A program made the translations under genes and the position numbers. A stretch of DNA of 14,374 nucleotides from a virus (lineage: Duplodnaviria; Heunggongvirae; Uroviricota; Caudoviricetes): the IMG/VR virus record IMGVR_UViG_2778261203_000003. One strand, written 5' to 3'. Below the pieces are notes generated by a model. That model saw nothing but the letters and a program-made list of their open reading frames with translations. It had not been told where the DNA came from and did no database searches. Of this stretch, positions 1,298-10,463 are shown in pieces (position 1 is the first letter of the stretch; each line of letters begins with the position of its first letter).

Positions 1298-1452
1298 TAG
1301 TTAGTGTGGCTTTTAGTCAAGTAAGATGACGTCTTGGTCTTGCTGATGCCTGGCGCTCAATCCAGCGATCAATTTCTTCCAGGTTGTAAAAGCATGGACT
1401 GTTAAATAGCCTATGCTAATGTCCGCTAAGAGCAAGAAGCGGAAGTTGGCAG

Positions 1453-1475
1453 TTTTGTGGACTGTCCCCACAAAA
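1453..1475. repeat. Perfect 8-bp inverted repeat with 7-bp spacer in the integrase upstream region
   Basis: TTTTGTGG (1453-1460), spacer ACTGTCC, CCACAAAA (1468-1475), about 160 to 180 bp upstream of the int start on the coding side. Could be a protein-binding site or a small hairpin. Confidence 0.3.
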
Positions 1476-1640
1476 GTGACTACAGAAATAGTTGCAATTC
1501 ATAATTGATCATGGGTTGTCAGTTAAACTCGTGGCGATTTAAATAGACTAATTGGGAGTGCGTCCATTACTTATATCTTGTAATGTTAACTATCAGAAAT
1601 GATACAAAGATAATATGTCTTTAAAGAAAAGGCTGATGGC

Positions 1641-1664
1641 GAAAAGTGGCCCGATGAGGGCCAC
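1641..1664 (-). terminator. Candidate intrinsic terminator downstream of flxA
   Basis: Inverted repeat GTGGCCC(1646-1652)/GGGCCAC(1658-1664) with 5-nt loop, followed on the minus strand by a short U run (plus-strand gaaaa 1641-1645), about 15 nt past the flxA stop. Confidence 0.35.
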
Positions 1665-1678
1665 AATACGGCTGTCAC

Positions 1679-2011
1679 TTAGACGTAAATATCAATGGTG
1701 CCAGCGGTATTTGTATCGTCTTTTTTCTCTTCTTTTTTATCAGGCTGAACTGTCGCGTCTTCATTCTTTTTCTCTGCCTGCTGCCTTAACAACTGCTCCA
1801 GTTGAGCCCAGAGGCTTTCAATTTGCTTCTGTACCAATGCAGCCATTTCTTTTTTCTGCTGTGTCGTCATCCCCTCTTCCGATGAGATTTTCCCAAGCTT
1901 TTCAGTCAGCACCTGAATTTGTCTTGTGATTTTGGCTATTTCTGATGTTCCTTCCGGGGCGGAGTTGTTTGAAATAACGGTTGAGGTATTTCCCTGAATT
2001 GTGACAGACAT
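1679..2011 (-). CDS. flxA: FlxA, a FliA-regulated protein of unknown function, 110 aa
   Basis: Translation MSVTIQGNTSTVISNNSAPEGTSEIAKITRQIQVLTEKLG... matches my recollection of E. coli FlxA. RBS AAGGAG about 6 nt upstream of the ATG. A sigma28-type promoter lies upstream (next feature). Confidence 0.85.
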   Translation of the reverse strand: MSVTIQGNTSTVISNNSAPEGTSEIAKITRQIQVLTEKLGKISSEEGMTTQQKKEMAALVQKQIESLWAQLEQLLRQQAEKKNEDATVQPDKKEEKKDDTNTAGTIDIYV

Positions 2012-2034
2012 AGATTTCTCCTTTTAAAAAAGCA

Positions 2035-2061
2035 CTATCGGCATGCACAAAAAAATCTTTA
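2035..2061 (-). promoter_or_regulatory. Sigma28 (FliA) promoter of flxA
   Basis: Minus strand reads TAAAGATT-N11-GCCGATAG (-35 at 2054-2061, -10 at 2035-2042) against the consensus TAAAGTTT-N11-GCCGATAA, 7/8 matches in each element with the correct 11-nt spacer, about 25 nt upstream of the flxA ATG. Confidence 0.6.
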
Positions 2062-2142
2062 ATCGTATTTCTTGTGTCATTAATTGTTTGATGTTCAGAT
2101 TGTTTTCCTCGCGGGCTGGCGCGCCTCAGAAAGTAAAGCTTG

Positions 2143-2171
2143 TTGACAGGGGTAAACGTTCGGCAATAATT
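2143..2171 (+). promoter_or_regulatory. Candidate sigma70 promoter, divergent from flxA and reading toward the ydfV/relB region
   Basis: Perfect -35 TTGACA (2143-2148), 16-nt spacer, AATAAT (2165-2170). A perfect 10-bp palindrome CCGCATGCGG (2176-2185) follows immediately. No convincing plus-strand gene lies directly downstream, so its function is unknown. Confidence 0.3.
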
Positions 2172-2213
2172 TTCTGCCGCATGCGGGTGTTGCATAAAAC
2201 GTGTTACGTTCCT

Positions 2214-2519
2214 TTATCGACAGGTCAGGTCACCGCTCACCCGCCGACGAGAAAGCAACACTGACATGCTAAAGCAAAAAATAGATGAATAAGTTGAGTT
2301 GTGCATATGTAGCCTGACCGTCACAAAGTATATGGTGTCTGTACCAGTAAGATGATGGCCGGACTCTTTAAAAACGAGCTGACCTGCACAATACAGGATG
2401 GACTTAGCAATGGCTGCTCCTGGCACAAAGCGGACAGTGATCACCGTTCTTACGACTACTTTCTGACTTCCTTCGTGACTTGCCCTAAGCATGTTGTAGT
2501 GCGATACTTGTAATGACAT
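2214..2519 (-). CDS. ydfV: YdfV-like hypothetical protein, 101 aa; coding status doubtful
   Basis: ORF track 101 aa. Length and position (between relB and flxA) match K-12 ydfV as I recall. Its ATG (2517-2519) lies inside the relO operator and no clear RBS was seen. Confidence 0.4.
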   Translation of the reverse strand: MSLQVSHYNMLRASHEGSQKVVVRTVITVRFVPGAAIAKSILYCAGQLVFKESGHHLTGTDTIYFVTVRLHMHNSTYSSIFCFSMSVLLSRRRVSGDLTCR

Positions 2520-2532
2520 TTGTAATTACAAG
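2480..2532 (+). promoter_or_regulatory. relBE promoter with relO operator
   Basis: -35 TTGCCC (2480-2485), 17-nt spacer, -10 GATACT (2503-2508). Operator CTTGTAATGACATTTGTAATTACAAG (2507-2532) holds two TTGTAAT direct repeats and a perfect 12-bp palindrome TTGTAATTACAA (2520-2531), as in the known relO. RBS AGAGGTG precedes the relB ATG. Confidence 0.6.
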
Positions 2533-2543
2533 AGGTGTAAGAC

Positions 2544-2783
2544 ATGGGTAGCATTAACCTGCGTATTGACGATGAACTTAAAGCGCGTTCTTACGCCGCG
2601 CTTGAAAAAATGGGTGTAACTCCTTCTGAAGCGCTTCGTCTCATGCTCGAGTATATCGCTGACAATGAACGCTTGCCGTTCAAACAGACACTCCTGAGTG
2701 ATGAAGATGCTGAACTTGTGGAGATAGTGAAAGAACGGCTTCGTAATCCTAAGCCAGTACGTGTGACGCTGGATGAACTCTGA
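2544..2783 (+). CDS. relB: RelB antitoxin, 79 aa
   Basis: Translation MGSINLRIDDELKARSYAALEKMGVTPSEALRLMLEYIADNERLPFKQTLLSDEDAELVEIVKERLRNPKPVRVTLDEL is near-identical to E. coli RelB as recalled. Its stop overlaps the relE start (TGATG). Confidence 0.95.
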   Translation: MGSINLRIDDELKARSYAALEKMGVTPSEALRLMLEYIADNERLPFKQTLLSDEDAELVEIVKERLRNPKPVRVTLDEL

Positions 2784-3070
2784 TGGCGTATTTTCTGGAT
2801 TTTGACGAGCGGGCACTAAAGGAATGGCGAAAGCTGGGCTCGACGGTACGTGAACAGTTGAAAAAGAAGCTGGTTGAAGTACTTGAGTCACCCCGGATTG
2901 AAGCAAACAAGCTCCGTGGTATGCCTGATTGTTACAAGATTAAGCTCCGGTCTTCAGGCTATCGCCTTGTATACCAGGTTATAGACGAGAAAGTTGTCGT
3001 TTTCGTGATTTCTGTTGGGAAAAGAGAACGCTCGGAAGTATATAGCGAGGCGGTCAAACGCATTCTCTGA
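2783..3070 (+). CDS. relE: RelE mRNA-interferase toxin, 95 aa
   Basis: Translation MAYFLDFDERALKEWRKLGSTVREQLKKKLVEVLESPRIEANKLRGMPDCYKIKLRSSGYRLVYQVIDEKVVVFVISVGKRERSEVYSEAVKRIL matches E. coli RelE. Translationally coupled to relB. Confidence 0.95.
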   Translation: MAYFLDFDERALKEWRKLGSTVREQLKKKLVEVLESPRIEANKLRGMPDCYKIKLRSSGYRLVYQVIDEKVVVFVISVGKRERSEVYSEAVKRIL

Positions 3071-3141
3071 ACCAAAGCATGACATCTCTGTTTCGCACCG
3101 AAGGTGACACTTCTGCTTTGCGTTGACAGGAGAAGCAGGCT

Positions 3142-3297
3142 ATGAAGCAGCAAAAGGCGATGTTAATCGCCCTGATCGTCATCTGTTTAACCGTCATAGT
3201 GACGGCACTGGTAACGAGGAAAGACCTCTGCGAGGTACGAATCCGAACCGGCCAGACGGAGGTCGCTGTCTTCACAGCTTACGAACCTGAGGAGTAA
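3142..3297 (+). CDS. hokD: HokD (RelF) membrane toxin, 51 aa; absent from the supplied ORF track because it is below the length cutoff
   Basis: Manual translation from ATG 3142: MKQQKAMLIALIVICLTVIVTALVTRKDLCEVRIRTGQTEVAVFTAYEPEE, stop TAA 3295-3297. RBS AGGAG at 3129-3133. Third gene of the relBEF operon. Confidence 0.9.
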   Translation: MKQQKAMLIALIVICLTVIVTALVTRKDLCEVRIRTGQTEVAVFTAYEPEE

Positions 3298-3365
3298 GAG
3301 ACCCGGCGGGGGAGAAATCCCTCGCCACCTCTGATGTGGCAGGCATCCTCAACGCACCCGCACTT

Positions 3366-3397
3366 AACCCGCTTCGGCGGGTTTTTGTTTTTATTTT
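3366..3397 (+). terminator. Rho-independent terminator of the relB-relE-hokD operon
   Basis: Stem AACCCGC (3366-3372), loop TTCG, stem GCGGGTT (3377-3383), then a T-rich run TTTTTGTTTTTATTTT. Confidence 0.6.
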
Positions 3398-3513
3398 CAA
3401 CGCGTTTGAAGTTCTGGACGGTGCCGGAATAGAATCAAAAATACTTAAGTAGCGCGCAGGGATAAGAGGGATGGTCCCTTAAAGGGGAGAGCTAATTATC
3501 CGGAAGGATTCTG

Positions 3514-3765
3514 ATGATGAACATCGAAGAACTGCGTAAAATTTTTTGTGAAGATGGCCTCTATGCTGTGTGCGTTGAAAATGGAAATCTTGTTAGTCAT
3601 TACCGCATTATGTGTTTGCGAAAGAATGGGGCTGCGTTAATTAATTTTGTGGATGCTCGGGTCACGGACGGATTTATCTTGCGCGAAGGTGAGTTTGTCA
3701 CTTCATTACAGGCATTGAAAGAGATCGGAATAAAAGCTGGCTTTTCTGCTTTTTCAGGAGAATAA
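3514..3765 (+). CDS. rem: Rem, small prophage protein of unknown function, 83 aa
   Basis: ORF track 83 aa, MMNIEELRKIFCEDGLYAVC... RBS GGAAGGA upstream. Position between hokD and ydfU as in Qin. Confidence 0.8.
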   Translation: MMNIEELRKIFCEDGLYAVCVENGNLVSHYRIMCLRKNGAALINFVDARVTDGFILREGEFVTSLQALKEIGIKAGFSAFSGE

Positions 3766-3831
3766 ACTCATCTACAATCTTGCGCGGGGCTGAACTCCCG
3801 CTGAGTAACACCGTGCCACCGGAGAAAACCG

Positions 3832-4110
3832 ATGGCACGCAACGCAAAATATTACAATTCTGATAATTCGCCCGTTCTTGCCTGCACGCACGGGCGGTAT
3901 TCTCACGCATTCAAGTCTGAATGGTTCCAGCACCCTCCATGCACTGCAGAACAGGCCGAATGGCTGATTCATTCTTACCGCAGGCGCGGGTTCGAGGTTA
4001 AGAAAGCTCTCAGTCTCGACTATCGGCACTGGATAATCTCTGTCAGGCTGCCTTATTCCGAACGCCCACCACGTGCGTCCCGCACTTTCCTGCAACGGAT
4101 CTGGAGGTAA
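3832..4110 (+). CDS. Hypothetical basic protein, 92 aa, translationally coupled to ydfU
   Basis: ATG 3832 preceded by GGAG (3821-3824) at 7-nt spacing. Stop TAA 4108-4110 sits inside the ydfU RBS, one nt before the ydfU GTG. Fills the rem-ydfU intergenic gap. I do not recognise the product. A GC-rich antisense ORF also covers the region. Confidence 0.4.
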   Translation: MARNAKYYNSDNSPVLACTHGRYSHAFKSEWFQHPPCTAEQAEWLIHSYRRRGFEVKKALSLDYRHWIISVRLPYSERPPRASRTFLQRIWR

Positions 4111-4111
4111 C

Positions 4112-5161
4112 GTGCGGGTATTACTTAGACCTGTTCTGGTGCCTGAGCTTGGGCTGGTGGTCCTTAAGCCGGGCCGTGAATCCATACAGATATTTCATAA
4201 TCCTCGAGTGCTGGTGGAACCGGAACCAAAAAGCATGCGTAATCTGCCATCCGGAGTCGTTCCTGCCGTTCGCCAGCCGCTGGCGGAAGACAAAACATTG
4301 CTGCCGTTTTTTAGTAACGAACGGGTGATTCGTGCTGCTGGCGGCGTTGGCGCATTGTCCGACTGGCTATTACGTCATGTTACATCCTGCCAGTGGCCTA
4401 ATGGCGATTACCATCACACTGAAACAGTCATTCACCGTTATGGTACCGGCGCAATGGTGTTGTGCTGGCACTGCGACAACCAACTGCGTGACCAGACATC
4501 GGAATCACTGGAGCTGCTTGCTCAACAAAATCTGACAGCATGGGTGATTGACGTCATCCGTCACGCAATAAGCGGTACGCAGGAGCGGGAATTATCTTTG
4601 GCTGAATTATCCTGGTGGGCGGTCTGCAATCAGGTGGTGGATGCACTACCTGAGGCTGTATCGCGTCGTTCGCTGGGATTACCAGCGGAAAAAATCTGCT
4701 CGGTGTACCGCGAAAGCGACATCGTACCGGGAGAGCAGACCGCCACCAGCATATTGAAACAACGCACAAAAAATCTTGCACCGTTGCCTTACGCCCACCA
4801 GCAACAAAAATCACCACAGGAAAAGACGGTGGTAAGCATCACCGTTGATCCAGAGTCTCCGGAATCTTTCATGAAGCTGCCTAAACGTCGCCGCTGGGTT
4901 AAGGAGAAATACACACGTTGGGTTAAGACACAGCCGTGTGCTTGCTGCGGTATGCCAGCCGACGATCCGCATCATCTGATTGGTCACGGGCAGGGCGGAA
5001 TGGGAACAAAAGCACATGATCTCTTTGTGTTGCCTTTGTGCAGAAAGCATCACAACGAGCTGCATACGGATACAGTGGCATTTGAAGATAAGTATGGCTC
5101 CCAACTGGAGCTGATATTTCGTTTTATCGATCGCGCGCTGGCAATTGGCGTACTGGCGTAA
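4112..5161 (+). CDS. ydfU: YdfU (DUF968-family) protein with a C-terminal HNH-like Cys/His motif, 349 aa from GTG
   Basis: ORF track frame 4073..5161. Preferred start is GTG 4112, which has GGAGG at 4103-4107; the GTG at 4073 has no RBS. C-terminus carries CACCG...PHHLIGH...CRKHHNELH, resembling an HNH nuclease zinc-binding signature. Length matches the 349 aa I recall for K-12 YdfU. Confidence 0.8.
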   Translation: MRVLLRPVLVPELGLVVLKPGRESIQIFHNPRVLVEPEPKSMRNLPSGVVPAVRQPLAEDKTLLPFFSNERVIRAAGGVGALSDWLLRHVTSCQWPNGDYHHTETVIHRYGTGAMVLCWHCDNQLRDQTSESLELLAQQNLTAWVIDVIRHAISGTQERELSLAELSWWAVCNQVVDALPEAVSRRSLGLPAEKICSVYRESDIVPGEQTATSILKQRTKNLAPLPYAHQQQKSPQEKTVVSITVDPESPESFMKLPKRRRWVKEKYTRWVKTQPCACCGMPADDPHHLIGHGQGGMGTKAHDLFVLPLCRKHHNELHTDTVAFEDKYGSQLELIFRFIDRALAIGVLA

Positions 5162-5174
5162 GTGGAGAACGAGC

Positions 5175-5927
5175 ATGAACCTTGAAGCCTTACCAAAATA
5201 TTACTCCCCAAAATCTCCAAAATTGAGCGATGACGCTCCAGCGACAGGCACCGGTTGTTTAACAATTACGGATGTAATGGCAGCGCAGGGGATGGTGCAG
5301 TCGAAAGCACCACTTGGGTTGGCCTTATTTCTGGCAAAAGTTGGTGTTCAGGACCCTCAGTTTGCGATTGAAGGCCTGCTAAATTACGCGATGGCACTGG
5401 ATAACCCGACATTGAACAAATTGAGTGAAGAAATCCGGTTACAGATTATTCCTTACCTCGTGAGTTTTGCCTTTGCTGATTACTCCAGGTCTGCGGCAAG
5501 TAAGGCTCGCTGTGAGCATTGTTCAGGTACGGGATTTTATAATGTATTGCGCGAAGTGGTGAAACACTACAGACGCGGGGAATCTGTAATCAAGGAAGAA
5601 TGGGTGAAGGAACTATGTCAGCATTGCCATGGTAAGGGCGAAGCCAGCACAGCGTGCAGAGGGTGTAAGGGTAAAGGGATTGTTCTGGATGAAAAAAGAA
5701 CCCGGTTTCATGGCGTACCGGTATATAAGATTTGTGGGCGTTGTAATGGAAACCGGTTTAGTCGTTTACCGACCACGCTGGCACGACGTCATGTTCAGAA
5801 GCTGGTACCAGACCTGACCGATTATCAGTGGTATAAGGGGTATGCGGACGTCATTGGTAAACTGGTAACAAAGTGCTGGCAGGAAGAAGCATACGCGGAA
5901 GCGCAATTGAGGAAGGTGACGAGATAA
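5175..5927 (+). CDS. quuQ: Q-type late-gene antiterminator, 250 aa
   Basis: Start ATG 5175 (MNLEALPKYY...) with RBS GGAGAA. Several Cys pairs (CEHCSG, CQHCHGKG, CRGCKGKG, CGRCNG) typical of Q-family zinc-binding antiterminators. Followed by a promoter plus terminator pair. Confidence 0.85.
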   Translation: MNLEALPKYYSPKSPKLSDDAPATGTGCLTITDVMAAQGMVQSKAPLGLALFLAKVGVQDPQFAIEGLLNYAMALDNPTLNKLSEEIRLQIIPYLVSFAFADYSRSAASKARCEHCSGTGFYNVLREVVKHYRRGESVIKEEWVKELCQHCHGKGEASTACRGCKGKGIVLDEKRTRFHGVPVYKICGRCNGNRFSRLPTTLARRHVQKLVPDLTDYQWYKGYADVIGKLVTKCWQEEAYAEAQLRKVTR

Positions 5928-5958
5928 ATGATTTTTGCTGAAGATGGCGACATGATGT

Positions 5959-5987
5959 TTGCATTTTTCAAAAAATATGGATAAAAT
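5959..5987 (+). promoter_or_regulatory. Candidate late promoter (pR'-like) downstream of quuQ
   Basis: TTGCAT (5959-5964), 17-nt spacer, TAAAAT (5982-5987), about 30 nt after the quuQ stop, with a strong terminator roughly 45 nt downstream. This is the arrangement lambdoid phages use for Q antitermination. Exact element assignment is unverified. Confidence 0.4.
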
Positions 5988-6033
5988 TTTTTCAACGATG
6001 GGCTTTGTATACCCGACGTTAAGAAAAAGTAGA

Positions 6034-6060
6034 AAACCCGCTGATGAGCGGGTTTTGTGC
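6034..6060 (+). terminator. Rho-independent terminator (tR'-like) after the candidate late promoter
   Basis: Stem CCCGCT (6037-6042), loop GATG, stem AGCGGG (6047-6052), then TTTTGTGCTTT. An A run upstream could make it bidirectional. Confidence 0.55.
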
Positions 6061-6348
6061 TTTAAATGGGGCAATGGTAATGTTGAATCTCATCCCGGGA
6101 CTCATGTCTGTTAACTTATTATTTAGCTGGTGACTTGGTTATTTGCCTGATGTTTAAAATGTTTTCTTCCAGTACAATGTCCCTAAACACAATGAGTCTG
6201 CTTATTATATTATTAGCAGAGCTATTACGGCCAAAGTACAGCATAAGCTTTTAAAGCCAATCAACCAGTCATCAAGACAGACGGGGTTATTCATAAAAAC
6301 TCTCCATGTGTGATCCGATGGGGCCTGAAATTAAAGCTTTAATATAGC

Positions 6349-6561
6349 TCATGAAAGGTAAACATTGGCAGCTGAAGGGCCACGCAGACCATTTATCCGG
6401 CAAAATTCCACGCGTAATCCGGTGGTAATTTCTTCTGCATCGCGGAGATTGAGCGCTGAAACATGAAGCTGGACATCGATACGACCATCGGATGGGGTGA
6501 TAAGACCCTTGCCGCTTTTGCCGTCAAAGGTTTTGACAATTCCTGTCATTTTACGGGACAA
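6349..6561 (-). CDS. cspF: Cold-shock protein family paralog CspF, 70 aa
   Basis: Translation [70 protein letters not shown] has the CspA-family fold signature and CspF-like divergence from the RNA-binding motifs. Confidence 0.9.
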
Positions 6562-6832
6562 AAAAATTCCTTAATACTGATAACTTGGCGCACTATACAC
6601 ACGTTCCTGAAGAAAGCTATAGTTTTTTGATGGGGTTGAAGATGGCTGGATGTCTAAAATAAACATTGCTTCATATGTTCAACTATGCGTTAATGATTGC
6701 GTCGGTTTGAAGAACAGACGATATACGAAGTAGTTTACTAAAGCAGTTCTCATTTCAGGTGTTATTCACTTATTCCTTCTTTGAGTCTCTCCAATTAAGT
6801 ACGAAGTCGTTTCTGTTATGCAAACCATTTAT

Positions 6833-6845
6833 GCCGAAAGGCTCA
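6833..6845 (+). promoter_or_regulatory. Csp 5'-UTR 'upstream box' element ahead of the cspB RBS
   Basis: GCCGAAAGGCTCA at 6833-6845, close to the GCCGAAAGGCACA element described in the cspA-family 5' UTRs, 16 nt upstream of the cspB ATG. Confidence 0.4.
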
Positions 6846-6861
6846 AGTTAAGGAATGTAGA

Positions 6862-7077
6862 ATGTCAAATAAAATGACTGGTTTAGTAAAATGGTTTAAC
6901 GCTGATAAAGGTTTCGGCTTTATTTCTCCTGTTGATGGTAGTAAAGATGTGTTTGTGCATTTTTCTGCGATTCAGAATGATAATTATCGAACCTTATTTG
7001 AAGGTCAAAAGGTTACCTTCTCTATAGAGAGTGGTGCTAAAGGTCCTGCAGCAGCAAATGTCATCATTACTGATTAA
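6862..7077 (+). CDS. cspB: Cold-shock protein CspB, 71 aa
   Basis: Translation [71 protein letters not shown] carries the RNP1 (KGFGFI) and RNP2 (VFVHF) motifs. Confidence 0.95.
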
Positions 7078-7359
7078 AATTCATCGCTCGTCTGTATACG
7101 ATAACGAAGAAGGCTGATGCCTGAGTAGAGATACGGACAGAGTAGTGAATATTGGATCTCTTTAATAAAAAGTAAGGAGGTCCAATACATGAAACAATGG
7201 CTAGCATATTTGGCAAAATCTTAATCAGGAAAAGTATGCTAACCATTGTGGTGAAGTGCAGGTTTGCTGCATGAATAGTTTTACAGCAGAAGCTAACTGC
7301 TGGCATGGCAAAACAAAGTGCGTAAGTGGATGACTCCCACAAAAAGCACCACAATCTCA

Positions 7360-7382
7360 AACCCGCTCAGGCGGGTTTTTTA
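7360..7382 (+). terminator. Rho-independent terminator
   Basis: Stem AACCCGC (7360-7366), loop TCAG, stem GCGGGTT (7371-7377), then TTTTTTATT. Lies about 280 nt downstream of cspB. Confidence 0.55.
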
Positions 7383-7440
7383 TTATCTGCTTTAAATATA
7401 TTATTAAAATATAAAAAATACTTGTTACTAATAAAATCAA

Positions 7441-7611
7441 TCAGGCTACAGCTTTAAGATTTGTCTGGAATACTTTGTTGCAATGAGGGCAGATCAAAAG
7501 GGCACCTTTTTGTACTCTTGAAAAACTGTGTTCTGACTCTTGGGTGCAGTTTGGGCAGGAACATTTAACGAGATAATTACGGCGTGATTTTGAGTTTTTA
7601 CGTTCTGACAT
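7441..7611 (-). CDS. Small zinc-ribbon protein, 56 aa (the ORF track extends it to 73 aa from an upstream ATG at 7662); possibly YnfU-like
   Basis: Two C-x2-C pairs (CSCPNC ... CPHC) about 20 residues apart. The internal ATG at 7611 has an AGGA RBS at about -9; the upstream ATG at 7662 has none. The assignment to the K-12 small protein YnfU is from uncertain memory. Confidence 0.5.
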   Translation of the reverse strand: MSERKNSKSRRNYLVKCSCPNCTQESEHSFSRVQKGALLICPHCNKVFQTNLKAVA

Positions 7612-7830
7612 AGGCTTTTCCTGTATAAATGGCCGTATACAGTACACTAAATATGAAAACATTTCTCGTATTATTATTTTATATATGACTTTCTTTCAAA
7701 ATAATTACCCACATTTTTAATGTGTATGTTTTTTTAGCGCCGTTGAGAACAACGTGTGCTGTCAAAACTACCCCGTAGACTCCGATCTTTTCAAACATAT
7801 TGCACCATCCGTGTACATCGGGGTGAGGAT

Positions 7831-8046
7831 ATGAAATCAATGGATAAGTTAACAACAGGTGTTGCCTATGGCACATCGGCGGGTAATGCTGGTTTCTGGG
7901 CATTGCAGTTACTCGATAAAGTAACTCCGTCACAGTGGGCTGCAATCGGTGTGCTGGGTAGCCTGGTTTTTGGCCTGCTGACGTATCTGACAAATCTTTA
8001 TTTCAAGATTAAAGAAGACAGGCGTAAGGCTGCGAGAGGAGAGTAA
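7831..8046 (+). CDS. essQ: Phage-21-type pinholin (S21-like), 71 aa, with dual-start motif
   Basis: [71 protein letters not shown] is near-identical to phage 21 S21 as recalled. Met1-Lys-Ser-Met4 dual start (antiholin/holin), two transmembrane domains, RBS GTGAGGA. Confidence 0.85.
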
Positions 8047-8050
8047 TCCA

Positions 8051-8358
8051 ATGACTCAAGACTATGAACTGGTTGTGAAAGGAGTCCGTAATTTTGAGAA
8101 TAAAGTTACGGTAACTGTAGCCTTACAGGACAAAGAACGCTTTGACGGTGAAATTTTTGACCTGGATGTCGCCATGGACCGTGTTGAAGGAGCTGCGCTG
8201 GAGTTTTATGAGGCAGCAGCCAGAAGGAGCGTCCGGCAAGTCTTCCTGGAAGTAGCAGAAAAATTGTCAGAAAAAGTTGAGTCTTATCTGCAGCATCAGT
8301 ACTCCTTTAAGATTGAAAATCCTGCCAATAAGCACGAGCGTCCTCATCATAAATATCT

Positions 8359-8362
<4 letters not shown>
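8051..8362 (+). CDS. ydfR: YdfR (DUF1327-family) protein, 103 aa, between holin and endolysin
   Basis: ORF track 103 aa. Its stop overlaps the endolysin start (ATGA). Same position as ydfR in K-12 Qin (recollection). Confidence 0.8.
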
Positions 8363-9386
<1,024 letters not shown>

Positions 9387-9748
9387 GGTAATATTAAATC
9401 GGAACATTTACATCGCGGAATGTAAAATTTAAATAAAAAGGACTCTTCCATGAGCCAAAATTCCTGAAATCTTAAGGGTAAGATAAAAGGTCTTAATCAG
9501 AATGACACGTTTTATTAATAAATAAAGCTATTCTTTCATTGCTGTGTTTTTCTTTACAAAAGTAATCCTTGCTATGGGTGGTTAATCATGCGTTAATGGT
9601 GTTCTGGTTTGTTACAAATTTATCTGAAGCAGTCATTGTTATAATTTTATTATTTGTACCTCTTGAGATTTCCTTGTTGGTTTTTCTCTCTGATATTTTT
9701 TTTCGGACCATTCTGCCCAAGGGCTAATTTCTTCAAAAGGTAATAATT

Positions 9749-9961
9749 ATGTCTAACAAAATGACTGGTTTAGTGAAATGGTTTAACCCTGAAAAAGGTT
9801 TTGGTTTCATCACGCCGAAAGATGGCAGCAAAGATGTGTTTGTCCATTTCTCAGCAATTCAGAGCAACGATTTCAAAACATTAACTGAGAATCAGGAAGT
9901 TGAATTTGGTATTGAGAACGGACCTAAAGGTCCTGCCGCTGTTCATGTAGTGGCGCTTTGA
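9749..9961 (+). CDS. cspI: Cold-shock protein CspI, 70 aa
   Basis: Translation [70 protein letters not shown] with RNP1/RNP2 motifs. Long AT-rich 5' leader typical of csp genes. Confidence 0.9.
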
Positions 9962-10049
9962 GGTAGACAATATTACAAACCATATTCACTTTAGATGCCC
10001 GTGTTGTCATGGTTCCCAGTATAGAACATCATCTTTTGATGTTTCTGAC

Positions 10050-10160
10050 ATGAATCCTTTCGGGGCAAAATGTATCTTTTGTAAATCAATGATGATTACA
10101 TTTGATAATATTTCACAATACTTAAATGCCAGCCGTCTGTCGTTGGATTTAAAAAAGTGA
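10050..10160 (+). CDS. Small ORF, 36 aa from the first ATG; the frame is open from 9951 and upstream encodes a C-P-C-C zinc-ribbon half; possibly ynfN-like
   Basis: In-frame translation ...FRCPCCHGSQYRTSSFDVSDMNPFGAKCIFCKSMMITFDNISQYLNASRLSLDLKK*. There is no ATG, GTG or TTG in frame between 9951 and 10050, so the true start is unresolved. A strong terminator follows directly. Confidence 0.35.
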   Translation: MNPFGAKCIFCKSMMITFDNISQYLNASRLSLDLKK

Positions 10161-10165
10161 AAATG

Positions 10166-10188
10166 AAGGCTCCTTCGGGAGCTTTTTT
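10166..10188 (+). terminator. Rho-independent terminator after the cspI/ynfN-like unit
   Basis: Stem AAGGCTCC (10166-10173), loop TTCG, stem GGGAGCTT (10178-10185, one G-U pair), U run 10183-10188. Confidence 0.6.
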
Positions 10189-10232
10189 GCTTGGTGTCTA
10201 TTCGATGGATACTCACATACTACGGTAACATC

Positions 10233-10463
10233 ATGAAAAAAATCATAGTTTTTTTTAACTCTGAACCAGCAGTGGTAGTGCCAGCGATGACTGGAGTTAA
10301 CACCATCATGCGTGAATATCCAAATGGCGAAAAAACACACCTTACTGTAATGGCCGCAGGGTTTCCATCTCTGACCGGAGATCATAAAGTCATTTATGTA
10401 GCCGCGGATCGACATGTTACTTCAGAAGAAATTCTGGAAGCAGCAATAAGGCTCTTGAGTTGA
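10233..10463 (+). CDS. Hypothetical protein, 76 aa from ATG 10233 (the ORF track begins at a TTG at 10191)
   Basis: Protein-like composition (MKKIIVFFNSEPAVVVPAMTGVNTIMREYPNGEKTHL...). Lies between the terminator at 10166-10188 and gnsB. RBS is weak and no clear promoter was found, so confidence is limited. Confidence 0.35.
   Translation: MKKIIVFFNSEPAVVVPAMTGVNTIMREYPNGEKTHLTVMAAGFPSLTGDHKVIYVAADRHVTSEEILEAAIRLLS

Follow-up and report, generated by a model that had tools for sequence, protein, structure and literature searches.

Our analysis of a 14,374-nucleotide stretch of virus DNA (hereafter the window) indicates that the short open reading frame lying in the rem-ydfU gap is, judged by how its sequence varies among relatives, a genuine protein-coding gene of lambdoid prophages under purifying selection. 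The gene is already known, as a hypothetical protein called by PGAP and as a member of the family phrog_1212, and its omission is limited to the curated MG1655 record. Taking all lines together, the explanation that we favour, and hold to be right with somewhat better than even probability, is that we are dealing with a genuine coupled phage gene whose product is an accessory protein of the nin region, that YdfU is a His-Me protein, and that the block they belong to is silent in K-12. In Qin-type prophages the small gene opens this rightward block, which continues with ydfU and, in many relatives, RusA, and ends with Q; the window's block has no RusA. On its other side lies rem, which many relatives do not have at this place, and which should not be counted among poorly characterised genes, as an earlier note on this DNA had done, since it encodes the antirepressor of DicA (PMC10448788). 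The features discussed below are collected in Table 1.

Table 1. Features in and around the rem-ydfU interval, in window coordinates.
Feature	Coordinates	Strand	Remarks
rem, upstream neighbour	3514..3765	+	annotation
-10-like hexamer TACAAT	3773..3778	+	with TTTTCA 3751-3756; possible promoter of the small-ORF block, inferred
Leader hairpin GCGGGG-CUGAAC-UCCCGC	3784..3801	+	from folding; invariant loop motif
Start-codon hairpin	3812..3839	+	pairs the small-ORF AUG and half of its Shine-Dalgarno
Shine-Dalgarno GGAG of small ORF	3821..3824	+	7 nt 5' of the ATG; from sequence
Small ORF, 92 aa	3832..4110	+	phrog_1212 family, WP_012304870.1-like; ATG 3832, TAA 4108-4110
N-terminal extension, codons 1-26	3832..3909	+	dN/dS 0.61; predicted disordered
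Conserved core, codons 27-92	3910..4107	+	dN/dS 0.10; phrog_1212 match, residues 27-92
Predicted stem CCCGCAC (4079-4085) / GUGCGGG (4112-4118)	4079..4118	+	occludes the ydfU start codon
GGAGG Shine-Dalgarno of ydfU	4103..4107	+	within codons W91-R92 (TGG AGG) of the small ORF
ydfU, 349 aa	4112..5161	+	GTG start; DUF968-family His-Me finger protein
YdfU N-domain cluster C93, H101, C118, C121, D122, N123	4388..4480	+	(nearly) invariant columns
YdfU His-Me (HNH) module	4913..5101	+	C276-x2-C279, D284-P-H287-H288, C310-x2-[H/C]313-H314, H318
quuQ/ydfT, Q-like antiterminator	5175..5927	+	downstream end of the block; annotation

The 92-codon frame and its ribosome-binding site, first proposed from the letters alone, are both confirmed by the sequence, and the Shine-Dalgarno reads GGAG at 82 of 96 loci, the others having AGAG. 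These 96 loci comprise 36 distinct alleles, and when all six frames are compared only that of the small ORF stays open in every one of them. For this frame pN/pS comes to 0.25, and for four of the others to 1.35-1.52. The -1 frame, which shares its third positions with the coding frame, also has a low ratio (0.35), yet it contains stops in 36/36 alleles. Variation is spread over the three codon positions as 28/32/59, the 2-codon indels seen in the N-terminal extension keep the frame, and an antisense ORF of 137 aa that overlaps the gene is broken in 27/36 alleles. Thus we regard the small ORF as coding because it is the sole frame open in all alleles, because synonymous changes are in excess and because its indels preserve the frame; the frameshifts or stops that the earlier note thought worth looking for in relatives did not appear, and selection on the core is strong. 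The mosaic homology blocks that contain the gene begin 17 nt before its ATG and finish at the ydfU stop.

Of 5426 complete E. coli genomes, 4529 (83%) have the ORF, at 8528 places, and PGAP annotates it in each of 40 evenly sampled genomes; the same pipeline calls it a hypothetical protein (WP_012304870.1) in K-12 derivatives and in thousands of other genomes. The suggestion that it had gone unannotated in K-12 thus holds for the curated record NC_000913.3, from which it is missing, and fails for the PGAP annotation of K-12 derivatives, while the protein search that had been proposed returns a family, so the ORF is not an unknown one. In MG1655 the ATG corresponds to position 1644584, on the minus strand. 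The window differs from MG1655 by a few SNPs and so is not MG1655 itself; in its small ORF a SNP at 4091 (T for A) turns the conserved Q87 into L. A literature search for ribosome profiling of the ORF, by MG1655 coordinates and accession, gave irrelevant matches only, and the search for proteomic evidence of its translation found none.

The encoded protein is basic, as had been claimed (pI 10.2; 16 K+R vs 7 D+E), and its residues 27-92 match positions 1-66 of the 66 in the phrog_1212 profile (E 2.4e-34, 118 bits). The family comprises 528 clusters when grouped at 90% identity, and a search of 1.84 billion proteins gave 104 representatives at the 50% level. Homologues in Gifsy-2, mEp237, phiES15, PY54 and other phages are 37-47% identical, those of the four named phages being 66-69 aa long, and more distant ones are spread over phages from many genera of Enterobacterales. 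The family core can be written WF-H--CT--QA--L---YR-RG ... LP ... PRPSR--QQR-W, and thirteen of its residues (H34, C37, T38, Y49, R50, R52, G53, L60, D63, L73, P74, R81 and W91) are invariant despite only 40-49% identity between the proteins compared. The predicted structure of the core is beta-alpha-beta-beta followed by a C-terminal helix, with pLDDT of 88-91 over residues 31-70, while residues 1-24 stay below 50; the N-terminal extension is specific to the E. coli clade linked to DUF968 and is not present in the homologues of 66-69 aa. The Cys/His residues singled out earlier (ACTHGRYSH) do exist, but they are unconserved, with C18 replaced by Ser in most relatives, and the string falls within the poorly conserved tail that is predicted to be disordered; the invariant Cys/His pair of the protein is instead H34 and C37. 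The small protein would then be a basic, single-domain one with a floppy N-terminal tail.

Searches with this protein lead no further than its own family: its model gave no significant structural match, Pfam, NCBIfam and PADLOC gave zero matches, and its profile found only chance matches among PDB sequences. The few longer family members offer no informative domain fusions, being deletion or frameshift fusions (for instance to a replication protein) or internal duplications. We also rejected the label 'toxin to Rem' that one phage record carries: toxin, antitoxin and defence profiles (PADLOC, Pfam, NCBIfam) are all unmatched, many loci, that of the labelled record included, have no rem before the gene, and we found no literature in support of the label.

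At its 3' end the small ORF is joined to ydfU just as the earlier note described, with the TAA finishing 1 nt before the GTG and the ydfU ribosome-binding site lying in the last sense codons. The junction, ...TGGAGGTAACGTG, is identical in 93 of the 96 loci, the other three differing by one upstream base, which bears out the conservation across relatives that had been put forward as a check, and the same 1-nt gap is seen in O157, O104 and FEA3. An adjacent stop and start, with the downstream ribosome-binding site inside the upstream ORF, is the layout of translational coupling. However, while the description of this arrangement as a classic coupled one is right as to its layout and its strict conservation, such tight coupling is usual throughout lambdoid nin regions and so is by itself no sign of a functional pair. 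The predicted stem over the ydfU start is 98% paired in 14 alleles, with changes that are one-sided and wobble-compatible only, and its conservation is inseparable from coding constraint. How might coupling work here? Ribosomes finishing the small gene would supply most of the translation of ydfU, and the same ribosomes would melt the predicted stem, in which codons 83-85 of the small gene pair with the ydfU GUG.

YdfU does end in the CACCG...HH...CRKHHNELH pattern pointed out earlier, and its C-terminal 80 residues, as far as residue patterns can tell, carry a complete YbcO-related His-Me finger (HNH) signature. The likeness to HNH nucleases therefore stands, with the full residue set present and the metal-ligand residues aligned, though it was already in print: YdfU was assigned together with YbcO (PDB 3g27) to the His-Me/HNH superfamily in 2017 (PMC5714182). 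Against Pfam, YdfU matches DUF968 with E 1.4e-76 and 256.8 bits (cut-off 27.8), and falls just under the cut-off of HNHc_6 (26.3 against 26.6 bits), which relatives exceed (30 bits); its His-Me module also matches RecA_dep_nuc. The link to YbcO is seen both in BLASTP (E 9e-5) and in hhalign against the YbcO family (E 2.9e-5), where the residues of the module align to YbcO C54, C57 and H58. Over homologues down to 28% identity H287 and C276 are invariant and H288, H314, H318, C279 and C310 nearly so, and most have H or C at position 313. PHROGs and the RefSeq phage annotation likewise label the family HNH endonuclease. The AlphaFold model of YdfU is poor (mean pLDDT 46), with strand-strand-helix secondary structure at the C-terminus, and the top four Foldseek matches of this poor model are all HNH proteins, with E of only 0.7-4.7; sequence and profile searches against the PDB found nothing, and the literature searched reports neither a structure nor a nuclease assay.

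The rest of YdfU aligns from residue 1 with homologues in Klebsiella, Yersinia, Edwardsiella and Vibrio phages and with P1 PdcB. It has no Pfam match, and its conserved residue cluster could be a second zinc module. Three other proposals for this part of the protein were set aside: an internal duplication of the HNH motif is not significant (E 0.78), an N-terminal part resembling Orf/NinB, which has been suggested for Gram-positive DUF968 proteins, has a probability of 0.5% in hhalign against lambda Orf/YbcN, and a DUF1367-like one gives a BLASTP E of 2.4.

The small gene is preceded by a structured leader. The TACAAT hexamer does not on its own exceed chance in a consensus scan, and in most alleles, some with unrelated upstream contexts among them, it recurs 5-6 nt 5' of the first leader hairpin. 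In that first hairpin the CTGAAC motif lies 39-42 nt before the ATG in 98/98 loci, always in the predicted loop, with stems that covary. The second hairpin, over the start codon, has a folding energy of -16.4 kcal/mol (z -4.8); over 5 distinct alleles 96% of its cells are paired and 3 pairs have changed on both sides, and in class-2 alleles a competing hairpin exists. The RNA has more C than G across 3738-3971 and again across 3998-4127. In K-12 a strong Rho-dependent terminator lies between rem and ydfU, and rho and nusG mutants raise ydfU but not rem (PMC9160355). With a buried start codon, C-rich RNA and a Rho-dependent terminator, the block is thus probably silent in K-12-like hosts, and the conserved leader hairpins may account for its silence in cryptic prophages. 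Near rem and the small ORF we found no LexA box, and Rfam gave a sub-threshold isrK-like match only, on the hokD terminator.

What, then, does the small protein do? Our searches found no homology or experiment that assigns it a function. From gene order, it would most likely be a non-catalytic accessory factor of the recombination and DNA-processing module of the nin region, a reading that we adopt because in its relatives the gene always has that of an Orf/NinB-type mediator on one side and that of a structure-specific nuclease on the other. Such a factor would bind nucleic acid, or a common partner from host or phage, and would not be a subunit tailored to one nuclease. Gene order in nin regions is conserved for reasons besides direct interaction, which weakens the link to recombination.

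Could the protein instead be the dedicated partner of the nuclease encoded next to it, as an inhibitor or immunity factor, an activator or a specificity subunit, so that the two form a two-component system? Among 167 loci the following gene is DUF968 in 95, NinG in 34, YbcO in 31 and RusA in 2, so that a His-Me nuclease gene of one of three Pfam families lies directly downstream in 160, and stop/start coupling would favour balanced synthesis. Moreover, the 92-aa form and DUF968 co-diverge and are unseparated in every locus examined; DUF968 follows in 39 of 40 evenly spaced E. coli rows, the fortieth being a partial match (33%) for which a DUF1391 gene is listed as well. However, small proteins at least 80% identical (those of loci L110/L112 and L117/L120 nearly identical) precede either NinG or YbcO, which makes the junction a frequent recombination point rather than a site of partner-specific co-evolution. 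YdfU homologues (at least 80% coverage) are found in 173 phage records and the 92-aa form of the small gene in only 20, and all seven divergent homologue contexts inspected (in SfV, Salmonella, Klebsiella, Yersinia, Edwardsiella and Vibrio phages, and as P1 PdcB) are without it; lambda NinG and DLP12 YbcO are preceded by the unrelated NinF or NinE, and in the exceptional loci RusA or unknown genes lie downstream of the small gene. With so many YdfU, NinG and YbcO genes lacking the small gene, and near-identical copies of it standing before different nucleases, a dedicated partnership is not supported, and we regard it as unlikely.

Equally improbable, in our view, is that the protein works with the Orf/NinB-type mediator encoded upstream, the Qin-type copy being a derived one that has lost this neighbour. 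The phiES15-type clade (16 loci) tracks YbcN, which is upstream in all 16, and the clade of Gifsy and mEp237 type tracks DUF1367 (phrog_319, a NinB/Orf mediator) in 48 of about 52, while the single RdgC is that of PY54; gaps to the upstream gene are only -4 to +5 nt. Against this, the 92-aa clade, by far the commonest in E. coli, has its own leader and rem, hokD or parDE upstream, an Orf-like domain is undetectable in YdfU, the Qin-type copy is not preceded by an Orf-like gene, and co-inheritance with a neighbour may be mere linkage. A broader proposal, to which we give slightly less credence still, would make phrog_1212 a shared accessory factor in the recombination modules of lambdoid phages, one that forms a bridge from an Orf-type mediator, or from host SSB/RecA, to the structure-specific nuclease encoded next, whatever its family, and would add a Qin-type leader RNA that gates the small gene, YdfU and Q; in this RNA the hairpin with the invariant CUGAAC loop, and then the hairpin that sequesters the start codon, would act together with Rho.

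It is very improbable that the ORF is a translated leader only, there to couple ydfU and shield the RNA from Rho, with a functionless peptide. The ydfU ribosome-binding site and start are indeed embedded in the small ORF and paired with it, the Rho-dependent terminator lies inside the same interval, and a hairpin gates the start of the small ORF; but the amino-acid sequence is under strong purifying selection (core dN/dS 0.10), thirteen residues are held invariant in proteins so diverged, the core is confidently predicted to fold, and the family also occurs 5' of unrelated genes with different junctions, all of which speaks for a working protein. That the frame arose by chance or is a pseudogene remnant, as its absence from the curated MG1655 record and the transcriptional silencing of the region in K-12 might suggest, is refuted by a frame open in every allele with its codon-position bias, by PGAP annotation in all genomes sampled and by distant homologues across Enterobacterales phages.

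These findings are largely ordinary and do not overturn current understanding. The practical value of adding the small gene to the MG1655 annotation, and to resources derived from it, is modest and closes a small gap, though its addition would alter how the rem-ydfU interval, hitherto treated as an untranslated zone of Rho termination, should be read in K-12 studies. More generally, temperate phages of Enterobacterales keep phrog_1212 in a set position, with recombination mediators on one side and His-Me nucleases on the other, and the family is a reasonable candidate for dissecting the poorly understood recombination functions of nin regions.

The accessory-factor reading can be set beside known systems. 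The phrog_1212 relatives of the small gene include WP_010917803.1 (O157), Gifsy-2 STM1021.1n, mEp237 gp51, phiES15 gp17 and PY54 ORF47, while N15 Orf QD1 was matched through a BFVD fold search alone; relatives and small gene have in common their nin-region slot before a nuclease gene and Q. The Qin-type member differs from the others in its extra, weakly constrained N-terminal extension of 26 residues, in having its own structured leader and not abutting an Orf-like gene, and in always being followed by DUF968, whereas the others precede NinG or YbcO; the window's copy differs further by Q87L. In lambda, NinE and NinF, and in DLP12, NinE, occupy the same lambdoid slot directly before NinG or YbcO, are of similar size (56-60 aa) and, like the small gene, have the nuclease gene tightly coupled to them. 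The small protein is nevertheless not NinE or NinF, since hhalign gives a probability of 0.1% and there is no Pfam NinE/NinF match at E <= 1, and NinF is Cys-rich, whereas phrog_1212 has one invariant Cys and one invariant His.

On the side of the nuclease, YbcO (DUF1364, PDB 3g27) and DUF968 make up His-Me finger group 7, where YdfU is named (Jablonska et al. 2017, PMC5714182), and NinG/Rap and P1 Ref (RecA_dep_nuc) are related to this group. The YdfU C-terminus aligns with YbcO over G-x-G-x-K-x-x-D ... C-x-x-[CH]-H, and the two have in common the CxxC and Cxx[CH] zinc ligands and the His-His strand; YdfU, however, has 349 aa against 96 in YbcO, its N-terminal part being longer by about 260 residues, among them the conserved Cys/His cluster. 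P1 PdcA, considered as a counterpart of the small gene, is unrelated in sequence to phrog_1212. P1 PdcB, in turn, is homologous to YdfU over the full length (26% identity, with 91% of the length aligned) and has the same two-part architecture; its gene follows phd-doc-pdcA, outside any nin region.

The small ORF between rem and ydfU is a real gene. As an earlier note had proposed, it runs for 92 codons from an ATG that follows a GGAG ribosome-binding site by 7 nt, and the ydfU GTG lies one base past its TAA (see the table for coordinates). The ydfU Shine-Dalgarno sequence coincides with the final two sense codons of the small ORF, and the GTG is the right ydfU start, since homologues from Klebsiella, Yersinia, Edwardsiella and Vibrio phages and P1 PdcB align from residue 1. 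We collected 96 loci with an 88-92-codon form of the gene from IMG/VR and annotated genomes, representing 36 distinct nucleotide alleles, and of the six frames only this one is open in all 36. Its pN/pS of 0.25 compares with 1.35-1.52 in four other frames. The -1 frame shares its third positions with the coding frame and has a pN/pS of 0.35, yet it contains stops in 36/36 alleles. Variable columns are distributed 28/32/59 over the three codon positions, and the Nei-Gojobori dN/dS of 0.19 overall (0.10 for codons 27-92 versus 0.61 for codons 1-26) reveals purifying selection. An antisense 137-codon ORF that fully overlaps the gene has stops in 27 of the 36 alleles and is thus not conserved.

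Of 5426 complete E. coli genomes, 4529 contain the DNA of the small ORF, with 8528 occurrences in all. PGAP places a "hypothetical protein" at the site in all of 40 evenly spaced records, with a DUF968 gene (the Pfam family of YdfU) next in 39; in the remaining record the match is partial (33%) and a DUF1391 gene is also listed. In O157, O104:H4 and a mouse isolate, checked individually, an intact CDS of 90-92 aa stops 1 nt short of the DUF968 start. Mosaicism at gene boundaries is typical of lambdoid phages, and we see it here: Megablast blocks shared by Qin and other prophages typically start at window position 3815, 17 nt before the ATG, and end at the ydfU stop. The gene had been thought unlisted, which holds for the curated MG1655 record (nothing between rem b1561 and ydfU b1560) but not elsewhere: PGAP annotates it in XL1-Blue and like K-12 derivatives as WP_012304870.1, and phage genomes carry it too. 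Both RefSeq and PHROGs already list the small gene, as a hypothetical protein, and the HNH character of YdfU has been described in print. One phage record (ON470619.1, locus L170, 1667-1945) labels the gene "toxin to Rem", though that phage has no adjacent rem; we found neither profile nor literature support for the label.

How might the small gene and ydfU be expressed? Chhakchhuak and Sen (PMC9160355) rank the terminator 5' of ydfU with the strongest Rho-dependent ones in vivo, and in rho and nusG mutants ydfU is raised while rem is not (supplementary table, PMC9160355). The small ORF is located exactly in this rem-ydfU termination interval, where C exceeds G over two stretches. Its start codon falls in a predicted hairpin of -16.4 kcal/mol (z -4.8) that is kept in 5 distinct alleles, with 3 pairs altered on both sides (C-G to U-A, U-A to C-G and, in the inner stem, G-C to A-U); a CUGCUG/CAGCAG hairpin could compete with it in class-2 alleles. 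Further 5', CTGAAC occurs 39-42 nt before the ATG, always in a predicted loop, in 98/98 Qin-type loci checked. The stems around it differ and covary (GCAGGG/CCCUGU, GCCAG/CUGGC, GUCAG/CUGAC), and the hairpin is kept even where the DNA further 5' is unrelated. In most alleles a -10-like hexamer lies just 5' of it. This leader hairpin, which has no match in Rfam, may act as an RNA element that regulates in cis or stabilises the 5' end. Finally, a predicted pairing joins the ydfU GUG to codons 83-85 of the small ORF. Together, the Rho-terminator data, the C-rich stretches, the hairpins and the GUG pairing fit a scheme in which the small gene and ydfU would form a block with its own structured leader, poorly translated and Rho-terminated in the cryptic prophage, and in which ydfU translation would follow that of the small gene.

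Features of the rem-ydfU region (window positions)
Feature	Position	Strand	Remark
Rfam isrK match	3306-3387		sub-threshold
Terminator 3' of hokD	3366-3383		
rem	3514-3765		
C > G stretches	3738-3971; 3998-4127		
Antisense ORF	3772-4185	-	137 codons; not conserved
-10-like TACAAT	3773-3778		just 5' of leader hairpin
Leader hairpin	3784-3801	+	GCGGGG-CUGAAC-UCCCGC; predicted fold
Start-codon hairpin	3812-3839	+	pairs AUG and half of the small-ORF SD; predicted fold
GGAG of small ORF	3821-3824		
Small ORF	3832-4110	+	ATG 3832; TAA 4108-4110
ydfU Shine-Dalgarno GGAGG	4103-4107		
ydfU	4112-5161		GTG 4112
YdfU N-terminal cluster	4388-4480		residues 93-123; putative zinc module

The isrK match, scoring 25 bits where the gathering threshold is 50, covers the hokD 3' end and its terminator; it is probably spurious, because the alignment is mostly generic hairpin and terminator. 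In Salmonella, isrK lies 5' of an antirepressor gene.

The earlier note had counted rem in a block of poorly characterised genes, which no longer applies, as rem, the 5' neighbour in K-12, encodes the antirepressor of DicA (PMC10448788). It is absent from many related loci, and comparison with loci L022, L147, L178 and L179 shows that it behaves as a cassette that has been inserted. The leader hairpin of L022 directly adjoins the rem promoter-like region, and other prophages, which have no rem, place the small ORF after the hokD terminator or after a parDE module. The window is Qin-type prophage DNA 99.96% identical to MG1655 over 1403-10417, not MG1655 itself: three SNPs (4091, 4737, 5795) and one indel (10256) separate the two over the colinear 9 kb, and T for A at 4091 turns Q87, a conserved residue of the small protein, into L. 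The ~4.5-kb MG1655 segment ydfW-ydfE (dicC, dicA, ydfABC, dicF, dicB) is missing between 1161 and 1403, and therefore the Rem antirepressor is without a local DicA target in this strain.

YdfU belongs to DUF968 (E 1.4e-76), with near-threshold Pfam matches to HNHc_6 and RecA_dep_nuc on residues 268-328, and PHROGs assigns it to phrog_96, "HNH endonuclease". The HNH motif of DUF968 proteins was noted by Curtis et al. 2014, and Jablonska et al. 2017 (PMC5714182) name YdfU in His-Me finger group 7 with YbcO (PDB 3g27), a relationship we confirmed by BLASTP (E 9e-5) and profile-profile comparison (E 2.9e-5). Homologues down to 28% identity keep C276, C279, H287, H288, C310, H314 and H318, and position 313 is H or C in most. 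The metal ligands are thus retained, and the HNH-like motif picked out by eye is real. The AlphaFold model has pLDDT 46, and its best Foldseek matches, all HNH proteins, are non-significant. The N-terminal 260 residues, compared with Orf, are not Orf-like. They contain a cluster (C93, H101, C118, C121, D122, N123, R126), conserved down to P1 PdcB (28% identity), that looks like another zinc-binding module; its similarity to the C-terminal HNH motif is without statistical support (E 0.78). Many E. coli prophages have Qin homology only up to query 1363 (window 4862), or only from query 1348 on. Sequence comparison indicates a recurrent recombination breakpoint at ~4862, inside ydfU just 5' of the HNH module, which would separate the N-terminal two-thirds of YdfU from that module in domain-level mosaicism. 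Much longer entries 99-100% identical to YdfU exist (P0240, 438 aa; P0241, P0242 and P0244, 607 aa, additionally with a Q-antiterminator Pfam domain); these have the look of fusions to neighbouring genes by frameshift or read-through and are probably sequencing or assembly artefacts.

The small protein is basic, as claimed (pI 10.2), and residues 27-92 match phrog_1212 (function unknown; E 2.4e-34), with no match in Pfam, NCBIfam or PADLOC. A profile search of 1.84 billion representatives returned only 104 clusters, mostly of 65-70 aa, and tblastn located the gene in 55 phage records (Escherichia, Salmonella, Klebsiella, Cronobacter, Yersinia, Edwardsiella, Hafnia, Erwinia). Across proteins only 40-49% identical, 13 residues are invariant: H34, C37, T38, Y49, R50, R52, G53, L60, D63, L73, P74, R81 and W91. 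The Cys/His string ACTHGRYSH, initially singled out, lies within a clade-specific N-terminal extension and is not conserved. AlphaFold2 (32 sequences) predicts residues 1-24 to be disordered, followed by a strand-helix-strand-strand core and C-terminal helix (pLDDT 88-91 over residues 31-70). Thus neither fold nor sequence assigns a function.

For gene order, we surveyed 167 loci, comprising the Qin-type set and 66-69-aa relatives. The downstream neighbour is DUF968 (95 loci), NinG (34), YbcO/DUF1364 (31), RusA (2) or unknown (3), and upstream lies Rem (80), DUF1367 (48; phrog_319, "NinB/Orf mediator"), YbcN (16) or RdgC (1). The phrog_1212 slot is therefore fixed: recombination mediator, small gene, structure-specific nuclease, just 5' of the antiterminator gene Q. 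Our best guess is that the small protein assists the nin recombination/DNA-processing module as a non-catalytic accessory factor, with low confidence because gene order is the sole basis. Gaps in relatives are -4 to +5 nt on both flanks, and tight coupling is general in these nin-type regions. Could the small protein and the downstream nuclease instead be a dedicated pair? Three results argue against this. NinG comes next in some phages and YbcO in others although the small proteins share at least 80% identity, some being almost identical. YdfU homologues (at least 80% coverage) occur in 173 phage records, whereas the 92-aa form of the small gene occurs in only 20, and 7/7 divergent YdfU-homologue contexts inspected (SfV and Salmonella, Klebsiella, Yersinia, Edwardsiella, Vibrio and P1 phages) are without it. 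Moreover, lambda NinG and DLP12 YbcO are preceded not by the small gene but by NinF or NinE, which are unrelated to phrog_1212.
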